DNA from: Pelagomonas calceolata
Lineage: Eukaryota
Direction: 5' to 3'
DNA length: 64,000 nucleotides
Assembly: GCA_918797485.1 (NCBI GenBank)
Contig: CAKKNE010000006.1
Location: 3,410,001-3,474,000 of the forward strand
In this document: in pieces, positions 7,779-63,300 of the stretch
Numbering within the stretch: the stretch's first letter is position 1
Layout: every line of letters begins with the position of its first letter
Translations under genes and position numbers: made by a program
Notes under the pieces: model-generated
What the model was told of the DNA's origin: nothing
Seen by the model: the letters and a program-made list of their open reading frames with translations, nothing else
Database searches by the model: none

Positions 7779-10644
7779 TTAGAGACCCCCCTTGAACAAA
7801 TTCTTGATGTCCCGGCCCATCGCCTTCGCCCGCTGATCGGTCATGCCGCTCCTAAATTCGGCGCCGCGGCCCTTGCCCGTCGTAGCATTTCGTGCGACGT
7901 AGGCCCAGGGCGGGCTGTTCGCTGATAGCCGCCCGCGCACCGCGTCCAACCTATCAATCTTCCGCTGGTCGAACGCGTCGCCCAGTAAATGGCGCGCTAA
8001 AAAAGAATACGTCTTCTTGACGCACGTCAGCGGTCGTTTGGAGTTGTGGCCGCCCTTCACCAGCAGCAATTCGGCGTCGCGCCGCCGGCAGCCCTTCGAC
8101 GCGTACCGTCTTAGTAAAGCGCCGGCGTTCGCCCTGGGGGGCATCAAACTGTCGTCTGTTGCGGCCACCAGTAATAATGGAGCCTCCAACACTTCGACGG
8201 CTTCCAAGGCGTCGACGTCGTCCACATCTAGCTGAGCCCGCTTCAGGACCTCGGCCCGCACCGCGTCGATGGCCGCCTTGGCTGCACTTTCCGCTAATCC
8301 CGCGCGCGACGGGAAGTAGCTTGAGGAAGACCGTTCACACTTCTCCGTTCGACCCTCCTGGACGTCACGGATGAAGGCGTCGTCAATCGGTCGCTCACCT
8401 TTCTTAATGTCGGAGGGACCGTCACAACCTAAGGCTTCATGCGCCGCGTTCCGCGCGAGTCTATCAACAAGTTGTGATAGGGAAGCAAACGGCGAGTCGG
8501 CGACGACGCACGGAGCGACACCGTTCGGAGAGAATCCGGTTTTCTTGGCTCCTGCCAAAATAGCAGCGACGGCGCCCATGCTTCTTCCGTACAGCGCCAC
8601 CTGACTACAGCGCTTGTTCGCTAGTAAATGAGACGCCACGGAAGATGCATCCGACGCTTCGCGCAGACCCAACGTGACAAACTCGCCCTCCGATGAACCA
8701 GAACCCGTCGTGTCCACGGCGCACACTTTTATACCAAGCATGAGTAAAGGAGCTACGTGCGGCAGCGCTTCCATGCGGCACGACGCGTTGCCGTGCAAAT
8801 ACAAGACGCAAGGTGCTTCAGTAGAAAAGGCCCGAGACCACAAAGAGCACTTGAGCGCTTTCTTCTCATCAGACTGCACGGTAAAGTCCGACCGGACGCA
8901 TTGTACTGTAGTCTTATCTAGTAAAGGCACGTCAAACGATAACGGACCGAGTTCATCCACGGCGTAGGACGCGCGCGGCGGCCTTATAACTAATCGCACG
9001 ACGGCCCGCCACGCCGCCTTGGCCCTTCTAGGTGTTGCCGCCTCCCAAGAAACAGTACCGTCCTTCCTCACGACACGATCAAAGGCGAAGCCCTTCGAGA
9101 CGTGCGCTTCATCCGCGTCCGAGAAACGCACGGACTTTCTGCGTAGTGCGCTTCGACCACCAACTGTCCCTGGAGTTGAGGGCTCGACTCGCTTGCTCTT
9201 CGCAGGCGTAGCTGGTGGTGGCGGCGCCTTCTTCACCGCGGACAACGCGCCGAACGCCGACGCAATAGCTCTAAATGTAGAGGTAGTACCGGCAGAAGCT
9301 TCAATTGCGTCGACCTCGTCCTCGGCCGGCTCCAAGGAGTCGTCGTCGAAGGAATCCGCCGAGGCCGGTGGTTGCGACTTCAGGCGCCGATGCACTGCTA
9401 GTGTTTCGCCGATCGCCGTCCACCAGGCTTTGCACTCTGCTGAATCCGTAGTACAAAAGTGGAGGACCTCCTCGGCCTCTCCCACATTCAGGGTAAGTGT
9501 GAAGGCCCGATCCGACGAGCGCTCGACCCTACAGACCGCCGGGTGGAGCGACAGGACGCGCGCCGTCGCGTTGTGTAGAGACAAAGCCAATCTCCCAGCG
9601 CCTAGATCAGCATCAACCGCTTCGTTGTTCAATAGTAATGAACCTCTTCTTTCGGGCCAGGCCGCGAAGGCGGCCCGATCATCCTTCAGCGGCGAGCGAG
9701 CTAACGCGATCGTCGCCCGATCCCTCGTCATCCGTTGCGCGGATTTCGTGAGCCAGTCCACGACCTGCGTGGAATTCAATCAGTGTGTCGGGTGCACTCG
9801 AGCAAGCGCCGCGTCGATGGCGTACGAACGCGCCGTAAATTTTGATTTCCACGCAGTCCACGACGTCGTGCAGGTCCACGAGGCCGTCGCCGTCGGCATC
9901 ACACGCGTCGAAGGCGTCCCTTAGTACGGGGTCGTCGTCCTCGTAAACCGCTTCCGTACCTAGCGAAGCTATGACTAATGAGGGAAAGGCGTCCCTTGTC
10001 ACAGAACCATCCACACTAAAATGGCCGAAGGCCCGAGCCAACGCGTCGAGGGCCGGTCTTTTTGTCGCTTCCTTGGCCCACCGCTGCAGAACCTTTCTTC
10101 TAGCGTCGGCCTTGGACTTACAGCCCGGGCAGCGCTTTTGCGCGGTCTGGCACCTGCCACAAAGGATCGCGGCGCAGCCGCGGCCGGCGCAGGGCTCCAG
10201 TTTCTTTGTAGAATCGCCGCAGGCGACGCACCAGGCGCCGTCGCCGCTCGCGTCGAGTTTTTTGGGGTCGTCTAACAGATTTTCACACGCGCGCTGCGCG
10301 CGGGCCGTCGTCGCGACCGCCTTTGTGGTGAGCGACGCGCGGCGGCCGGCGGCGTCGACGACGACGGCCGCGGCCGTGTCCGCCGTGACCTTGACGACGC
10401 CGACCAGATCGCCTTTTGACGACGCGGCCCAGCCTTGCGCGCTTCGCTGGGCCAGTTTGCTACACAACTCCGCTGCGGCGCCGTGGGCCTCGCCGATCGT
10501 GTGCACCTCGCCGCCGCGTCGTATCACACCGCAGAGCGGCTCCCCACAGCCGCTGCCTAATCTCGCGAGCGGGCGCGCGCCATCCTTGTGCGCGTTGGCG
10601 TCGTCGTAGGCGTCGTCGAGGTCGAATTGCACGTGGGCGGCCAT
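7779..10644 (-). CDS. Multidomain alpha/beta hydrolase with Cys-rich finger, EF-hand and PH-like region (intron 9765-9864)
   Basis: Splicing restores the EF-hand 'DADGDGLVDLHD|VVDWL'; hydrolase motifs 'YLHGNAS', 'GRSMG', 'GGHN'. Confidence 0.8.
9757..9864 (-). mobile_element. Introner element (9765-9856) with TIRs and perfect 8-bp TSD GTCGTGGA
   Basis: TIR CTGCGTGGAAATCAA / TTGAATTCCACGCAG (14/15); TSD copies at 9757-9764 and 9857-9864. Confidence 0.92.
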
Positions 10645-33575: not shown

Positions 33576-35274
33576 ATGGCCTCGTACCGCTTCCGACGAC
33601 GAATAGCGACGCTCTTCCTCGGCGCCGCAGCGGCCCTAGCGCCGGCGCGACCGCCGCGCGCCGCCATTTCACGAAGCGCCGCCGTCGCCGAGCTCCCCGT
33701 ACAACAACCAGCAAAAACGGACGAGGGCCCCATCGCCGTCCTCTTGCTGAACTTGGGCGGCCCCGAAACGAGTGACGACGTCGAGCCCTTCCTCTACAAC
33801 CTCTTCGCGGACCCCGACATTATTAGATTGCCCCCTGCTCTAGCCGGTTTACAGACGGCCATCGCGTGGCTCGTGGCAAAAAGGCGAGCCCCGAAATCGC
33901 GGGCGGCCTACGATTCGATCGGCGGCGGCTCGCCCATTCTGGAATATACCACTCAACAAGCTAGGTTACTTGAGAACAGACTCGGCCCGGACTACAAGTG
34001 CTACGTCGCGATGCGCTACTGGCACCCGTTCACCGACGACGCGGTCCAAAAGGCCGTGGCCGACGGCTGCACGTCGGCCGTCGTGCTGCCCCTGTACCCG
34101 CACTTTTCGATCTCTACTACCGGTACGGAGCGGCGTCCTTTTTCCGCCTTCGATGCAACGGCCGTACGACCGCGGGAGGGACGCTGGGCCTCTGTAGATC
34201 CCAACGGGTCGCGTCGATGGCGTACGGCGTCAGCCGGTTCGCGCCCGGCCCGCCGTTGCGGGTTCTTCGATGTCCGGTGGGGCGTGTCGTGACCTGGAGC
34301 CCCCATCGACGTCGCGCCGACGGCGTTGGGGCGCCGGCGCGCCGTCGCCGCGACCACCGCGCGCGTCGCATCGATAGAGAGACCTTCACACAATCACGCC
34401 GCGCCGATGCCTCGACGCCGTCGCCGCGAGGCGCGTCGGAGCGAGTCGTACCGCGTCGACGCCGTCGAGACGCAACCGCGCCGCAGGCTCCTCCCTAAGA
34501 GCATTACTAGCGGAGATGCAGGCCAAAGCGCCCGCACTCATGCAGCGCCACACGGTCGTCCCGAGCTGGCAGGGGAGCCCCGGCTACGTCGACGTCGTTG
34601 CGAAACTCGTCGCCGAGCAGCTCGACTCCCTCGACGACATTTCAGACACGACCACGGTCCTCTTCAGCGCCCACGGCGTCCCCGTCTCCTACGTGGAAGA
34701 AGCGGGAGACCCCTACAAGCGCCACATCGAAGAAACCGTAGCCAAGGTCACGGAAAACGTGAAAAGACGGCGACCAGCGACGACGGCGACCTTCGAGCTC
34801 TCCTTCCAATCGAGGGTCGGTCCCGTGAAGTGGCTCGAGCCCTACACGGATACTAAATTAGAAGAAATCGGTCAGAGAGGTTGTGACTCCGTGGTGGTCG
34901 TGCCGATCTCGTTCGTGAGCGAACACATCGAGACGCTGGAAGAGCTGGATATTGAATACAGGGAAGTCGCGGAAGAAGCGGGCGTCAAACACTGGCGGCG
35001 CGTGCCGGCTCTGAATCTGGACGAGGACTTCATCAGCGAGCTCGCGACGCAAGTGCGAGGCGCTCTCGCGAAACCCGTCGTGAACAGCGTCGACGCTTGT
35101 ATTTTGAATTCGTTTGATCTCACGGAGACGCCCGTCGGCATGCTTCCCGGTGTGGATGAACCGGTCGAGTTCGTGAACGGGCGGACGATGACGGTGGCCA
35201 TTACGCTCACAATCCTCTTCGAGCTTCTTGCCGATAGAGCGTCGGTCGTCGGGCTGCTGGGGCTGCCGGTATAA
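33576..35274 (+). CDS. hemH: Plastid ferrochelatase with a C-terminal CAB-like segment (intron 34123-34486)
   Basis: 'LLNLGGPET', 'IGGGSPI', 'AMRYWHPFT', spliced '[13 protein letters not shown]', 'FSAHGVP', '[10 protein letters not shown]', '[11 protein letters not shown]'. Confidence 0.96.
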
Positions 35275-47547: not shown

Positions 47548-49650
47548 ATGATGCCGCGCCGCACCCTCATCCTCCTCGCCCTGCTCGGCGTCGCGGCGGC
47601 GTCGTGGCGCAATGCCGCGAAGCTCGCCTGCGCCGGCGCGTTCCTATCAGCAGTACTCAATGGCGTCGTCGACCGCATCCACGGCATCGTCGACTACTCC
47701 TGGAACTCGCCGCCGCCGCCGGAGAGCTGGAATCGGACGCTCGCGCCGGAAGAGCTGGAGGCCATGAACTCCGCCATGCGCAACCTGTCGGCTGCCCAGG
47801 CCCAGGGCTACGACGCGTTCGTAGCGAACTACAACTTCACGAAGAAGACAGTCGAGCTGGCCCTGCGCGGGCAATTGCCGACGGAGCAAGAAGACTGCTC
47901 GAACCCCGACGTGCCGCTGCAGGCGCCGACGACGGCGCCTGACGTCGTGCCGATGCAGGCGCCGACGACGGCGCCGACGAGGACGCCCACGGGCGCTCCC
48001 GCGCGGCGGCGGCACCGGAGACGACCGCTCGCGCCCGCGTCTCTACCTCTCGAATCGCATCAGTGACTCGTTTGACTCGTTATGTGCGCACAGGTTCACG
48101 CGGGTGAACCGGCGCAAGCCGGCACATAATTGGCCTGCTTGTCGCGGCACCGAGCTCTGCGCCGACAAAGGCCTGATCGAGGCGCACCTCCTCGTCCTGG
48201 GCACCTTCGATGATCTGGAACAAGCAAAGGCGGAGCTTTTGACGATGGTTTCTACTATATTTGGACCCGATACCTGGGACGCGCGCCGTCAGGCGCAGAT
48301 CGTGGAACTTTTCCGTCTGTACTCTAATGGGAACGTCGCGCTCGGTCCTTTAGTAGATAAGGTACTCGAGGCGCGCGGCGAGCTGGGCGCCTTTGATCCG
48401 GGAGGTATACTGGAAAATATAGGAGAAGCTCTCTTCCAAGCCGGCCTCGTGGCAATCGAGGACGGCGTTCTCGTCGATGGTCCGCGGCTCGTACGAGCAC
48501 GCGATGCTTTAGTGGAGAAGCGGGGCTACAGCCCCGACTCGAACGCGGTCCGGTCGTTAACTGTCGAGACCACGCTCGTCGTGTGGTTTAATTTGGTGCT
48601 TTCGGATCTGGAACTGCAGAAGGCAGTGCCGCTGCTCGCAAGCGCCAGCGCCTATATTCTCAGAACCTTCTTCGCGGTTTCTACTGTTCTTCACTCGTCT
48701 ACCTTCAGCTATCATAACTCACTGTTGTTCCACGCAGGTCTATCCCCATTGCTTCTGGGGCGCATACTCGATGGTCGCCGTGCAGAAGTTCCCGGGCCTG
48801 CTGAACGACTTCTGGAAGGCTGGCGCCGGAGAATCGCTCACGTTGGTGGCTTCGGGCGACAAGTCCGCCTACAAGCTCATGGTCAAGGCCTGCGCCGACG
48901 CCTACCCCTACGTGATCGTTCGTGGCGCGCTGTGTCGAATTAAAAGGTCGTCTTCTATGAGACACGCCGCGTTGATGGCTGCGTCGCGACGACGGCAGCG
49001 TTGCGTCGATGGCGCCGCGTCGATGGCGCCACGTCGCGTCGATGGCGTCATGTCGATGGCGTCGCGTTGATGGCCGCATCGACTGTGTCGCGTCCATGGC
49101 GTCGCTTCGCGTCGATGGCGTCGTGGCTTCGAGAGCGTGGCGCTGGACATGGCCTCGACGTAGCCCAACGAGAGTCGAGCTGCTCGCGCCGACGCTGCGA
49201 CTCGTCGATTTCCACACAGGTCGCCTGGAGAAGTCCTTGCTCAAGGACCTCCACGACGAGAAGAAGATGCAGAAGAAGCTCTACGACGCGATCAAGGGGT
49301 CCGACGAGCAGTGGACGTTGGTCTTCGCAGTGAAGGACGTGGTCGTGAAAAACGGTGCGGATCCTGGGATTCGCGCCATCTACTACGTTGAACTACCCGC
49401 GGACGAGACGTTTTCGACGGTGGGCCTGCAGAAGATCGACAACGTGCCTGCTCTCACGACGCCTTTTGCGTATTTGACGGTCGCCGTAGCTCAGGCCGGA
49501 CGGGCGCAAGCGGGCGGCTCTATCGTCGTCGTGTTCAACGAGAAGTTCGCGCCGCGGAAGGCGCCTCGCACTACCCAAGGCTTGCCGTTCGGCTACAACG
49601 ACAAGGAGCAATACCTGAGGGCGTGCCTCGAACAGGGGCGCGTCCTTTAG
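47548..49650 (+). CDS. Multi-exon hypothetical gene (introns ending at 48093, at 48677-48737 and at 48922-49219)
   Basis: ORFs 48104, 48771 and 49009 join in phase at GT-AG sites; the donor linking ORF 47548 is uncertain. Confidence 0.5.
48922..49227 (+). mobile_element. Older introner (48930-49219) with internal GCGTCGATGGC repeats
   Basis: Ends CTGTGTCGAATTAA ... TCGATTTCCACACAG; TSD GTGGCGCG/GTCGCCTG (5/8); phase-1 intron. Confidence 0.75.
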
Positions 49651-53939: not shown

Positions 53940-55386
53940 ATGCTCGAGGCCGTCCTCACTCTACTGGCAGCGGCCTGGGGCGCGGCCATCCACCAACTCG
54001 TGCCGGCAGACCAACAACTCGCCGTCGGTGTCTTAGCATTCATCACTCTAGGAGCCGCGTACCTCTGCCAAAGCAAAACCAAAGAGTTAAGTGCCATCGG
54101 CCCCGCTGTTGATGAAGCCAAAGTAACCAAAAGGCCCTACCCTACGTATGATATCTCCACGCCGGAAGCGAAGAAGGCGTCCTTCAAAGCGATCATCCCG
54201 ATCCTCATCGACGAGGCCTGTGAGGAACTCGAGCAGTCCTATGAAGTGCGACCGGACGAGGTGGCGTGGATCCGGAAAGTTTTAGATTACAACGTGACGG
54301 GGGGCAAGATGAACCGAGGCTTGATGGTCGTCGAGAGCGGCATCTTGCTGTTTGGAGACCGTTGTACGAACGACGATTTATGCAGGTTCGCAGTTTTAGG
54401 CTGGGTCATCGAGATGCTGCAGGCCTGGTTGCTCATTGCGGATGATATTATGGACTCGTCCGTGACGAGGCGGGGCCAGCCGTGCTGGTACAAGAAGGAT
54501 GGTCTCGGTGTCGCGGCTATTAATGATGCTTTCTTGGTGGAGATGCTCCTGTTCAAGGCCTTGCGGAGGCATTTTGGGGATCGGCCCGAATATTCCAGAT
54601 TAGTTGATTTGGTCATGGAGACGACTCTACAGACCGAGTTAGGACAGCTGTTGGATATCAAGTGCGACACCGCTCCTCTCTCAGCTTTTACGCTGGACCG
54701 GTGGACGGCCATCGTCAAGTACAAGACGGCGTTCTATTCCTTCTACCTGCCCGTGGCGATGGCCATGGTCTGCGTGCGCGGCTGCGTCCTTTGTACGTTA
54801 CCACGGTGGCGCGCCATCGCCGCGCCGACGATCGCGTCGCGTTTTACCTGTCGACGGCGTCGCGCGCCGTCGATGCGTTCGGGGCCGCGGCGACGGCGTC
54901 GCGCCGCGCCATCGCCGCGCCGCGCCATCGCCGCGCCGATCATGGCGTCGCGTCCCGCAGGCCGGCATCGAAGATAGATCTGAATATGACGCTGCGCGCG
55001 AAATATTAGTCGTGATGGGCGTCTACTTCCAAGCCCAAGATGATTTCCTGGACGCCTTCGGTTCGCATGAACAGATCGGGAAAATAGGCACGGATATTCA
55101 AGATAAAAAATGCGGCTGGCTCTTCGTCAACGCGTACAACGGCATGGTCGACGCCAAGGACAAGGCGTACCTCGACAAGCACTACGGGCAGCCCACGTGC
55201 AAAGTGGGCTCGAAGCCGGAGAAGGCGATCAAGGAGATCTACAGAAAGATCGGCCTCGAGGCCAAGTATCAAAAATACGAGGAGGACAGCTACGCGCAGA
55301 TCATGAGCCTCAAGGGCAGCGCGAAGCAGGTCCCGTGGGCCGTCTTCGAGACGTTCCTCAAGAAGGTCTACAAGCGGAAGAAGTGA
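53940..55386 (+). CDS. FPPS: Farnesyl diphosphate synthase-type prenyltransferase (intron 54774-54960)
   Basis: 'YNVTGGKMNRG', FARM 'ADDIMD..TRRGQPCWY', 'GQLLD', 'YKTAFYSF', SARM 'FQAQDDFLD', 'KIGTDIQDKKCGW'. Confidence 0.95.
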
Positions 55387-55535: not shown

Positions 55536-56368
55536 CTAGTCGGCCGCGATGGAGACGACGCAGTACTCGGGCGGCGGCACGGGCGGGTCGGCACCGGTCG
55601 GATTGGCCAGGTCGCGGACCAGGACCTGTGCATAAATCAAAATTTCACGGCGCCTTCGCGCTGAATCGCCGCGTCGACCTCCACGCCATCGACGCGACGC
55701 CTGCTCGATAGCGTGGCGATGTCGGTTCCTCACTGCTCGACGGAGCCAGCGCGGTGGCCACGTCATCGCCGAGAAATGACTTTGTGAACAATTATCGGGT
55801 GCACCCGACTCACTGGTTCACTGGTTGATTTATGCACAGACCAACGAAGCCATCGACCTCGTCAGGCTGCTGCCGCCGCTTCTCCGCCTCGGCGAGCTCC
55901 CTCGCGGCGCGCGCGTGCCGCTCCTGCGCTGCCCGGTACTCGGCCTGCGGTTTGCGTTTTTTGTGAGTCGCGGCGATGGCGTGCGAGGACGCTGACTCGT
56001 GCCTCGCAACGCCGCCGCTCCTCGTTCCGCGTGTGCGCGAGCAGCCCTCCCGGTGGTGAACCGTCTCCATCTTCGTCGCCGCTCATCCTTCGCAGGACGT
56101 CGTCCAGGGCGCCCTGGTTTTCCTCGGGCTCGAGGAGGTCGTCGAGCACGGTGGCGGCCAAGCCGGCCGCCACGTTCTTGACGGCGCCCAGTCCCGCGAG
56201 CGCCGCGCCGCCCACCGCGCCGCCCACGTTTTTGAGGGCGCCGAGCGTCGGGCTCACGTCGTCGCCGCCGGCCGGCGGCGGCGGCGCGTCGTCTTCCGGT
56301 CGCTGCGGAGAGCTCTCGTCCGGCCGCGGCGGGTCCGGATCCATGATAGACGTATCGTAGATGTCCAT
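55536..56368 (-). CDS. Hypothetical protein (short intron at ~55945-56002 and introner intron 55626-55845)
   Basis: Three ORF pieces join in phase 0: ...RRRCE|AEYRAAQE...VDGF|VLVRDL... Confidence 0.55.
55618..55847 (-). mobile_element. Introner (55626-55839) with perfect 15-bp TIRs
   Basis: CTGTGCATAAATCAA / TTGATTTATGCACAG; TSD GTCCTGGT, with the upstream copy apparently eroded to GTTGGT. Confidence 0.88.
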
Positions 56369-56908: not shown

Positions 56909-59097
<2,189 letters not shown>

Positions 59098-59497
59098 TCA
59101 ATTGAGGCCGCCGCAGACCTTCAATTGTCCTCGCTGCAGCACTGAGGCCCCGCTACGTCAAAGTGCGCGCTGGGCCTCTAAGGCCTTCAGGACCCTCGTC
59201 GAGCGTCCCTGGACGCCTCGACGCATCAGGGGGCCCGGAAATGGAGTGCGGGTTTCGCGCTTAACATCTGGGACTCGGGCGCGCGCTGCCGCAAAACGCA
59301 AGCCCGCAGGGCGTGAGACGCAGTCGTTCATCGCAGAAAGTGCCCGCCGAGGCGTCCTCGCTGGCGCCGCAGCGAAAGAACGCGACGCAGAGGCAGAGGC
59401 CACAGCGCTCTCAGGAGGCGCCAAGCTCTCCGAAGCAAACGCGCGCGCTCCGGGCGTAACGCCACCGCCGCAGCGCGCGCAACGCCACCGCCGCGGC

Positions 59498-60071
59498 ATG
59501 GCCCGCTCCAAGACCACGCCCCGCATCGGCGGCGAGACCGGCGCTGGCACGCCAGCAAAAAAAAAGACGCCGACGAAGCGGAAGCAGCGGCTGCGACCGG
59601 GAGAGGCGGCGCTCAAGGAGATCCGCAAGTACCAGCGCTCTACCGATTTGCTGCTGCGGAAACTGCCCTTCGCTAGATTAGTACGGCAGGTCCAGCAGGG
59701 TCTGGCGCCGCACTGTGTGGAAATCAAATGTCGGGCGCCCCACGCCATCGACGCGATGTTGTCTCCGTAGCTGCGTCTGCTCGATGGCGTGGAGTTTCCA
59801 GGCCATCGACGCGACGTTGTTCCCGCGACCGCGTCGGCTCGATGGCGTGGAGGTTCAGGGCAATCTAACTCGCTGGTTGATTTCCACACAGGCGCCGCAC
59901 GACTTCCGCTGGCAAGCCGCGGCTTTGGTCGCGCTGCAGGAGGCCGCGGAGGCGCACCTCGTCGGGCTGTTCGAGGACGCGAACCTGTGTGCGATTCACG
60001 CCAAGCGCGTGACGATCATGGTCAAGGACATGCAGCTCGCGCGGCGCATCCGGGGCGTGCTGCGGGAGTAG
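59498..60071 (+). CDS. CENH3: Histone H3 variant, probably centromeric CENH3 (GC-AG intron 59705-59891)
   Basis: Divergent short tail '[14 protein letters not shown]'; 'KLPFARLVR' (A for the canonical Q) and 'FRWQ' (W for the canonical F). Confidence 0.8.
59705..59899 (+). mobile_element. Introner (59713-59891) with perfect 15-bp TIRs and perfect 8-bp TSD GCGCCGCA
   Basis: CTGTGTGGAAATCAA / TTGATTTCCACACAG; TSD copies at 59705-59712 and 59892-59899. Confidence 0.95.
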
Positions 60072-60332: not shown

Positions 60333-63300
60333 ATGAGATGCTGCCAGTTATGCTTGCTGGTGAGCTTTGGGCTGCGCGTCCGTGGAGCTACCAATGGGAC
60401 TCTCACCGTGCCGCTAGTCGCGCGGGCTGAGCATCGGCGGTTGTCCGTCGACTTTAAGGAGGTCGTAAAGCTGGTGGCCAGCGACGCAGCGACCAACGAC
60501 GAGTTCGGCTACTCCGTGGCGATCGACGGAAACACCGTCGTGGTCGGAGCCCTCTACGACGACGACGCAGGCTCCATGTCGGGCTCGGCCTACGTGTTCC
60601 TAACGACCGACGGCGGCGCTACCTACGATCAGGTGGCCAAGCTGACTGCTGCCGATGCCGCTGCGGAAGACCGCTTCGGCACCTCCGTGGCGATCGCCGG
60701 CGATACCGTCGTGATTGGGGCCTACGGTGACTACTATGAAAGAGGTGCGGCCTACGTATTCCGAACGAGCGACGGCGGCGCCACATACGACCAGGTGGCC
60801 AAGCTGACGGCCGCTGACGCCGCCTCGTACGACTACTTCGGCTACTCCGTGGCGATCGACGGCAGCACCATCGTGGTCGGGGCCAGCGGCGACGACGACG
60901 CCGGCTTCTACTCGGGCGCAGTCTACGTCTTCCACACGAGCGACGGCGGCGCCACATACAGCCAGGTGGCCAAGCTGACGGCCTCCGACGCCGCGGCGGG
61001 CGACTACTTCGGCTACTCCGTGGCCATCGACGGCAGCACCATCGTGATCGGGGCCTACCGAGACAACGATGGCGGCTCGGACTCGGGCTCGGCCTACGTC
61101 TTCCACACGACCGACGGCGGCGCCACGTACGTCGAGGTGGCCAAGCTGACGGCCAGCGACGCCGCGGCGGGCGATCGCTTCGGCAACTCCGTGGCGATCG
61201 CTGGCGGCACCATCGTGATCGGGGCCTACGACGACGACGACGCCGGCTCCAAATCGGGCTCGGCCTACGTCTTCCGCACGAGCGACGGCGGCGCCACGTA
61301 CGGCCAGGTGGCTAAGCTGACGGCCGCCGACGCAGCTGCGGAGGACGACTTCGGCAGATCCGTGGCGATTTCCGGCGACAGTGTCGTGGTCGGGGCGCAC
61401 CAATGGAGTATTGGCGGTACGGGCATGGCCTACGTCTTCCAAACATCCGACGGCAGCGCCACATATGAACAGGTGGCCAAGCTGACGGCATCCGACGCCG
61501 CCAATTACGACCGTTTTGGCGTCTCCGTGGCGATTGATGGTGGCAACGTCGTGGTCGGGGCTTACCTGGACGACGACGGCGGCCAAAGCTCGGGCTCGGC
61601 CTACGTCTTCAGCTTCAACGTTTGTCCCCCTGGTTCGTTCAGCGACAACGGCTTCCTAGACGGTACCGGCCAGTGCACTGCGTGCCCTGCCTCAACGTAC
61701 CAGCCGCTGTCCGCCCAATCGGCGTGTGATCCTTGTGCGGCCGGCCGCTTCTCGGCCGAAGACGGCGCTGTTGATTGTGAGGCGTGCCCCGCCGGTCGGA
61801 GCCAATCGGCGAGCGGCCAGAGCGAGTGTGTTGTATGCGCGTCTGGCAGCTTCTCGGCCGAAGACGGCGCTGTTGATTGCGAGGCGTGCCCCGCCGGTCG
61901 GAGCCAAGCGGCGAGCGGCCAGAGCGAGTGTGTTGTATGCGCATCTGGCAGCTTCTCGGCCGAAGACGGCGCTGTTGATTGTGAGGCGTGTCCCGCCGGT
62001 CGGAGCCAAGCGGCGAGCGGCCAGAGCGAGTGTGTTGTATGCGCATCTGGCAGCTTCTCGGCCAGCGCTGTTGATTGTGAGGCGTGCCCCGCCGGTCGGA
62101 GTCAACCGGCGAGTGGCCAGAGCGAATGCAACACTGTGTGTCTTCCGGGAACCTACGCCCCCGCTGGGTCAGCATCCTGCGATCACTGCCCGTACAACAC
62201 GTACAGCAGCAGCCCAGGAGCCGCCGCCTGTGATCCTTGCCCCGACGACTTGAAAGCTGGCCTTGGGCAGTCCTACTGCTCCAGGTGCCTTCCTGGCGAA
62301 GCAGAGCACATCGCTGACGACGGTCTGAGCATTACGTGCTTGAAGTGTCAAAACGGCACGTTCAGCCCACTTGGGCTCTATTGCGAGGTCCCTCCGTTGG
62401 GGTGGTACACGCCAGACGCGGTTCAGAGTCTGCCATGTGCCGCCGGGAGTTTTGCCAACGAGACCTACGCCACTTCCTGCACCGCGTGTCCTGCTGGTCG
62501 AAGCCAACCGGCGAGCGGCCAAAGTGAATGTATCGGGTGCGCGCCGGAAACTTATCAGCCGGACGCGGGCCATTTAGGGTGCGAGCCGTGCGCGACGTTC
62601 CAGCTCGGTCGCGGGTCGCGAAGCGGTGCAGTTTCGTGTGATTATTGCGGCGCGGGCTTATATCTGGGCGACGACGCCTCCTCGGCCGACGGAAAAAATT
62701 GCTTCGCCTGCCCGGCGCACGCTGACTGCGCGGCGGGTACGACGCTGGCGACGCTAAACGTTCATCCCGGCTATTGGCGCACCGGCCGCACGTCTCCGAA
62801 GCTCAAGCGATGTTTCCTCGAAAGCGCTTGCGTCGGCGGCAACGCGTCGCAATGCGCACCGGGCTACCACAAGACGCTCTGCGCGTCGTGCGAGCACAAT
62901 TACTACCTGGAGGTCAGCACGGGCGAGTGTTATGAATGCGACGCAGCGGCGACGCGCCGGACGCGACATTTCTTCGGGCTGCACCTGTTCATCTTGCTTC
63001 TGTTCTGCGCGTCGCCCTTCATCGTCGCGCGATTTCTACGCGCTCGTGCCCACGATGCGGCGAAGCGGCGCTTCCGGGCTCGCAGCGGGCGGTGGTCGCG
63101 GAGCGCCAAGGCCCTGCTGCCAAAGGCAGGACGTGTCGTGCCCGACGGGGAGACCAGCACGTCGCGGCCGCCGTGGGGCAAAAACTTGGTCGGCACAGCA
63201 GTCAAGGTCCACGCCGTTGGGGCTTGGCTCAGAGCAGAGATTGTCGACGTGGAGACCGACTACAGTGGCGCGCGCGGCATTTGTATTCAGTACACGGACT

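Follow-up and report, generated by a model that had tools for sequence, protein, structure and literature searches.

A transposon-like element removed from RNA as a 187-nt intron in a CENH3-like gene of the pelagophyte alga Pelagomonas calceolata

The window, the whole stretch of 64,000 nucleotides of Pelagomonas calceolata DNA that was analysed, carries a CENH3-like histone gene on the forward strand, running from ATG at 59498 to TAG at 60069-60071. The gene stands head to head with a chaperonin gene, cpn60, on the reverse strand, with the 468 bases between the two start codons occupying 59030-59497. In its unspliced form of 574 nt, the gene is out of frame and encounters a stop at codon 91. 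Coding exon 1 (59498-59704, forward strand) comprises 69 codons that span a divergent N-terminal tail and the start of the histone fold and lead into loop 1 (PF00125 positions 18-67), while coding exon 2 (59892-60071, forward strand) comprises 59 codons and TAG, spanning the end of loop 1 and the remaining histone fold (PF00125 positions 72-122). The sequence between them, 59705-59891, lies in loop 1 in phase 0, and without it the gene encodes a protein of 128 aa identical to the collection protein P0125, present on 379 contigs; the earlier note had claimed that splicing out the element with one target copy restores the protein, and it does.

Further features were observed elsewhere in the window. 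To the right of the gene, at 60400-61500 and beyond, lie tandem coding repeats of approximately 170 bases each, which by eye we take to be FG-GAP-like; Pfam returned no match in the scanned frames near 60400-61500, which lie on the other strand. A long frame at 12098-13540 on the forward strand matches the histone fold weakly (E 2.7e-4, which falls below the curated cut-off), has a C-terminus resembling SHOCT, and adjoins a similar SHOCT frame at 13593-15011.

Loop 1 of CENH3 helps to target the protein to centromeres, and the threonine considered in recognising CENH3 is T107. In the encoded protein, loop 1 is one residue longer than in canonical H3 (12 versus 11 residues, from RLVR to the F84 position), and the N-terminal tail is shorter than that of H3 and largely unlike it. 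Substitutions relative to canonical H3 include Q68A and F84W, and T107 is replaced by A, with the T of the KRVTIM stretch retained. The recognition features listed in a published account are a longer loop 1, a divergent N-terminal tail, loss of the canonical Q and F (positions 69 and 85), and loss of a canonical T printed as position 118 (PMC4359364). From 227 histone folds, 54 rows were chosen for a tree over 93 columns, which is weakly resolved; 22 canonical H3 rows fall on one side of a 98/95 branch, and the query falls outside them, in a group with relatives one of which is a diatom protein bearing the name cse4. The nearest named protein relatives come from Pelagophyceae sp. CCMP2097 (89%) and, at a greater distance, Aureoumbra lagunensis (80%).

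These features suggest that the host gene is probably the CENH3 of a pelagophyte alga and, judged by its CENH3-like sequence, likely essential. The alternative of a non-centromeric H3 variant, under which the description as an essential gene would fail, draws on a histone-fold identity of 70-73% to most canonical H3 rows, above that of many CENH3s, and on the best solved-structure matches, which are canonical H3; the extended loop 1, the three substitutions, the divergent tail and the position outside the canonical clade in a group with the cse4-named protein stand against it and render it improbable. The literature search found nothing on pelagophyte CENH3 or on the intron site 59705-59891. 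Two further collection proteins, P0005 and P0139, share a front half identical to the CENH3-like protein and carry a different CENH3-like fold in the back half; they are probably assembly chimeras, the back-half fold being joined to another N-terminus in other cluster members.

The element itself spans 59713-59891 (179 bp) and is likely non-autonomous jumping DNA. Its left terminal inverted repeat occupies 59713-59727 on the forward strand (15 bp, CTGTGTGGAAATCAA), and its right terminal inverted repeat, at 59877-59891 on the same strand, is the exact reverse complement (15/15) and ends in the CAG acceptor. The element is flanked by a target-site duplication on the forward strand, with copy 1 at 59705-59712 (GCGCCGCA), whose first two bases form the putative GC donor, and copy 2 at 59892-59899, identical at 8/8 positions and retained in the mRNA, where it opens exon 2. 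The perfect 15-bp inverted repeats and perfect 8-bp duplication read from the sequence earlier were thus recovered in full. At fixed positions, the chance of such a match is approximately 3e-5 (duplication) and 3e-9 (inverted repeat), and none of 30 Markov shuffles of the window contained a pair in which the duplication reached 7/8 and the inverted repeat 12/15.

The direct repeat continues for one more base on each side, giving 10 nt in all, and a reading with a 10-bp duplication and 14-bp inverted repeats fits 59705-59899 equally well when this site is viewed alone. Four of 24 listed sequencing runs were compared, namely RNA X21 and X22 (poly(A)), X7, and DNA X5. Fits of RNA reads from other copies end exactly at 59713 (886 in X21 and 734 in X22), and 40 of the X5 contigs, 343 of which lie on the stretch, carry other flanks at this position. 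The boundary is therefore placed at 59713, since reads and contigs of other copies stop fitting there and a sister copy at 9765-9856 has an 8-bp duplication; the 10-bp reading is rejected on both grounds.

The interior contains two tandem 58-nt units (59740-59855, forward strand), 48/58 identical and each partly palindromic, which carry the motif CGCCATCGACGCG of the family. Folding of the whole intron gives a single long hairpin with a computed RNA energy of -101.8 kcal/mol (z -7.6), none of 200 shuffles being equally stable, and the same hairpin computed as DNA gives z -6.7. With the YTRAY consensus as the search pattern, a branch-point-like CTAAC is predicted at 59865-59869 on the forward strand, its A lying 24 nt before the intron end.

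Four paired members of the family were found in the window, including 59713-59891. In each of the three sister copies, the target copy, whether perfect or decayed, opens with GT on one strand. The copy at 9765-9856 (reverse strand; 92 bp, duplication 8/8; 9757-9864 with the duplication) corresponds to a predicted 100-nt GT..AG intron, whose removal is predicted to join frames of 314 and at least 500 codons, EF-hand-like and alpha/beta hydrolase, across 9757-9864. The copy at 48930-49219 has a duplication decayed to 5/8 (48922-49227 with the duplication), and removal of the predicted 298-nt intron would join 120 and 143 codons. The copy at 55626-55839, with a duplication decayed to 4/8 (55618-55847 with the duplication), corresponds to a predicted 220-nt intron between 179 and 41 codons and may, from the predicted host strand, be inserted in the opposite orientation. 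These latter two copies, with their decayed duplications, are older members of the family. When up to 2 mismatches are allowed, CGCCATCGACGCG matches 54 times across the window, where 10.9 matches would be expected. Matches outside the four paired elements occur at 34210, 57878 and 54812-54935, for example in a ferrochelatase gene, and probably mark further, older introner-derived introns.

At 179 bp the element is too short to encode a transposase. Since none was found among the 49 of 140 long reading frames of the window scanned against Pfam, we infer its mobility from footprints. A scan of viral contigs for paired ends gave two matches, which were rejected as unrelated, having no CTG/CAG ends, duplication or BLAST match to the window. 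No paired family element was found in eight metagenome loci, whose 26,401 bases are too little sequence for this to be meaningful.

RNA reads bear directly on the removal of the element. X21 and X22 are two runs of one sample, approximately 6% of each run having been read, and X7 comes from another study and is classed as RNA by automated guess only. The earlier note had predicted an RNA junction at 59704/59892, and a skip of 187 nt was found there in all three: X21 gave 30 raw poly(A) reads with 23 starts, X22 gave 28 with 18 starts, and X7 gave one 555-nt contig with the identical joint. The mate direction of all X21 and X22 skip reads is as expected for forward-strand RNA. The flanking RNA depth is approximately 37-50, against the 30 and 28 junction reads, and the sense-strand depth over exon 1 in X21 is approximately 14-46. 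The DNA run X5 contained no 187-nt joint, and one of its contigs spans the left element border with 0 differences over 541 bases.

Because the target repeat extends one base on each side, the RNA junction is ambiguous by 10 nt and has 11 equivalent placements. Only one of the 11, at 59705-59891, ends in AG, and this placement begins with GC, which agrees with the earlier assignment of the donor GC to the first target copy and of the acceptor CAG to the inverted-repeat end. The GC..AG ends follow from the splice rule, the reads alone locating the sites to within the 10-nt ambiguity. The intron so defined (59705-59891, forward strand) is a 187-nt phase-0 GC..AG intron composed of the first target copy and the element. 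Among the 15 of 80 joints listed, the 14 besides the 187-nt junction all lie inside the element and are probably derived from other copies, since 9 of the 14 also occur in DNA; transcripts using other junctions at this gene, the outcome that had been set against the proposal, did not occur among them. Other in-frame donor and acceptor pairs are possible on paper, none of which appeared among these 15 joints, and minor alternative junctions may exist among the full 80. The very high read depth within the element derives from other copies and was used neither as a measure of copy number nor of intron retention.

Direct repeats at a hairpin are a classic setting for template-switch artefacts, and the very stable hairpin, which brings the intron ends together between 10-nt direct repeats, gives some footing to removal other than by the spliceosome, either as structure-guided excision or as template switching by reverse transcriptase in library preparation. 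Such removal is highly improbable. The unspliced RNA cannot encode the histone, the junction reads match the RNA depth of the flanks, and sense reads matching across 59711 number at most 3 in X21 and at most 7 in X22, these being possibly unspliced or of short overhang and hence an upper bound on retention. Moreover, a branch-like motif accompanies canonical GC..AG ends, and the GT at the target start has survived even in sister copies whose duplications have decayed to 5/8 or 4/8.

A metagenome collection, searched with a degenerate motif for the start of exon 2, yielded eight stretches (L001-L008). All eight are marine metagenome loci of the CENH3-like gene without the element and with a single target copy, which reads exactly GCGCCGCA in 4/8. 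They represent seven distinct types, L001 and L008 being identical in the compared codons. Five of the eight are syntenic with the neighbouring chaperonin gene and are therefore genomic DNA rather than cDNA. L002-L007 show 0 amino-acid differences from the window over 105 compared codons and 11-21 differences at 55-60 four-fold sites; L007 differs from the window at 1/60 bases before the insertion site. L001 and L008 have two amino-acid differences from the window and are also empty. A filled allele is likewise present in these assemblies, since the right inverted repeat contains the start of one collection protein, P0132 (2 contigs).

Intron gain is the simplest reading of these alleles, given that all eight loci are empty with one target copy and six show no amino-acid difference, and the emptiness of the more distant L001/L008 type points in the same direction. 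Precise intron loss occurs in eukaryotes, and only eight loci of seven distinct types were compared, which leaves some room for an old intron later invaded by the transposon or precisely lost in other lineages. This history is largely refuted and very improbable: the element and one duplicate account for all 187 nt, with no space for older intron sequence, the more distant type is as empty as the others, and an intact 8-bp duplication in the non-coding copy is the footprint of an insertion. An intron position conserved in distant stramenopiles, which the earlier note had named as contrary evidence, was not encountered, the eight loci of close relatives all being empty.

The description of the insertion as recent is favoured by a duplication and inverted repeats that carry no mutation. 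Against this, only 196 of the 2918 X21 reads placed on the stretch are at least 99% alike, most family reads have T at 59730 where the copy at 59713-59891 has G, and no near-identical sister copy appears among the contig pieces listed. The insertion is thus recent only in a relative sense.

The same loci also allow the neighbouring chaperonin gene to be compared. The head-to-head order of the CENH3-like and cpn60 genes is kept in L001, L003, L004, L007 and L008. Two more probable gained introns lie in cpn60 (reverse strand), at 57851-58094 and, with approximate ends, at about 58176-58317. Both are absent from L001, and the second is absent from L003 too; at the 57851-58094 site, L003 contains a related intron still bearing an inverted-repeat-like end.

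Four things were observed: how the element is built, the RNA reads that skip 187 nt, the presence of the family in many copies, and alleles in the empty ancestral state. Very probably, a non-autonomous cut-and-paste DNA transposon inserted into the loop-1 coding sequence and is removed together with one 8-bp target copy as a 187-nt intron, leaving the protein unchanged. A transposase encoded elsewhere would make an 8-bp staggered cut at CTG/GCGCCGCA, followed by insertion of the element; the 8-bp length of the duplication suggests a hAT-like enzyme. The spliceosome would then take the GC opening the upstream target copy as donor and the CAG at the inverted-repeat end as acceptor, with the internal CTAAC probably serving as branch point. 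Because both element ends read CTG...CAG, either orientation of insertion would supply the acceptor, and any target starting with GT or GC on the coding strand would therefore give a seamless insertion. Selection would purge insertions that break this GT/GC rule, and the element could persist in a likely essential gene because only insertions that satisfy it are kept.

Introner elements were reportedly described in Aureococcus anophagefferens by Huff, Zilberman and Roy in 2016. The correspondence with the Aureococcus introner mechanism asserted in the earlier note agrees with published descriptions. In that pattern, one splice site is carried by the element and the second one is supplied by the duplication, in either orientation (bioRxiv 10.1101/2020.10.14.339549), and the pairing of an element-carried with a duplication-derived site also figures among the introner types for which efficient splicing is reported (PMC9860276). 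The likeness extends to an unchanged mRNA length, function in either orientation (predicted for the present element), a length of approximately 200 nt and a pelagophyte host (bioRxiv 10.1101/2020.10.14.339549, PMC9860276, PMC10228655). Features of the Aureococcus type further include a non-coding element moved by a transposase acting in trans and a preference for insertion into nucleosome linkers. The present element is likened to these introners by architecture rather than by sequence homology, and both the empty state and the RNA junction are documented here for one named site. The element matches the Aureococcus-type introner, and its mechanism is already known and in print.

In P. calceolata itself, the genome report describes intron lengths that peak close to 210 nt, and its Supplementary Note 3 counts 956 putative introner elements with GT and GC donors and inverted repeats (PMC9481584). 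These resemble the present element as repeat-derived introns of approximately 210 nt with GT or GC donors, an AG acceptor and conserved inverted repeats, and the reported genome GC of 63% equals that of the window (PMC9481584). The note on introners gives no target duplication, the term TSD was not found in the supplement parts searched, and the text seen holds no presence/absence data (PMC9481584). The intron 59705-59891 may be present in the published P. calceolata intron table.

Similar architectures are described for dinoflagellates. ILE classes 6, 8 and 10 of Polarella glacialis have an 8-nt duplication beginning with the donor, the acceptor being carried by the element (bioRxiv 10.1101/2020.10.14.339549). 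The introners of Polarella glacialis and Symbiodinium differ in their dinoflagellate hosts and in allowing GA donors, and those of Symbiodinium have a 4-nt duplication, compared with 8 bp here (PMC9860276, Fig. 2B legend). Presence/absence polymorphisms of Micromonas introners in wild populations provide a parallel for filled and empty alleles in environmental sequence (PMC4540971, PMC3879977). Micromonas differs in being a green alga, and in one case its alleles share 99% coding identity, whereas between the alleles compared here 20-37% of four-fold sites differ, and a recombination signal is nevertheless seen. The literature search found nothing on Tara Oceans introner presence/absence polymorphism or on Pelagomonas introns derived from transposons with terminal inverted repeats.

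The recombination signal comes from a single gene in seven sequences (the window allele plus L002-L007), with the caveat that metagenome contigs can be chimeric. The filled and the six empty alleles encode the same protein and differ at approximately one third of four-fold sites, any two of them (window 59522-60071) showing 22-44 nucleotide differences per 363 bases. Among the informative-site pairs, 608/903 are incompatible, and the incompatible share rises from 25/83 within 10 bases to 282/389 at 31-100 bases. Neighbouring sites are more compatible than permuted ones (p = 2e-4, the floor of 5000 shuffles), and the signal persists when each codon contributes a single site and when the window allele is left out. 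In 198 clonal simulations of matched divergence, 0.5% reached p <= 0.01. The longest fully identical run between alleles is 24 nt, which limits but does not remove the risk of chimeras, a risk on which P0005 and P0139 also bear, their CENH3-like front half being by appearance joined to the histone fold of another organism.

Since filled and empty alleles show this signal, the wild population, itself very diverse, may still be polymorphic for the intron. Tentatively, and at slightly under an even chance, the intron can be read as a young allele that continues to segregate within a single, vast oceanic gene pool that recombines freely, rather than as a trait fixed in the species. As part of this segregating-allele reading, filled and empty alleles would be mosaics of one another at a scale of tens of bases, a proposition that likewise falls a little short of probable.

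The element is no surprise in itself, because its mechanism has been published and the host is reported to carry hundreds of elements of this kind; it is a clean new example of a known route to new introns. The value of the case lies in the intact footprints, the RNA junction and the empty ancestral alleles documented together for one site, and in an insertion into loop 1 of the probable CENH3, a position that is unlikely to tolerate a scar. If the intron does segregate, the site would let the cost of a newly gained intron in a centromere gene be studied in nature, and would give direct evidence at the population level that the alga has sex. If the alleles truly recombine, how frequent each is in ocean metagenomes could be used to gauge selection acting on new introns, which has long been a question in intron evolution.
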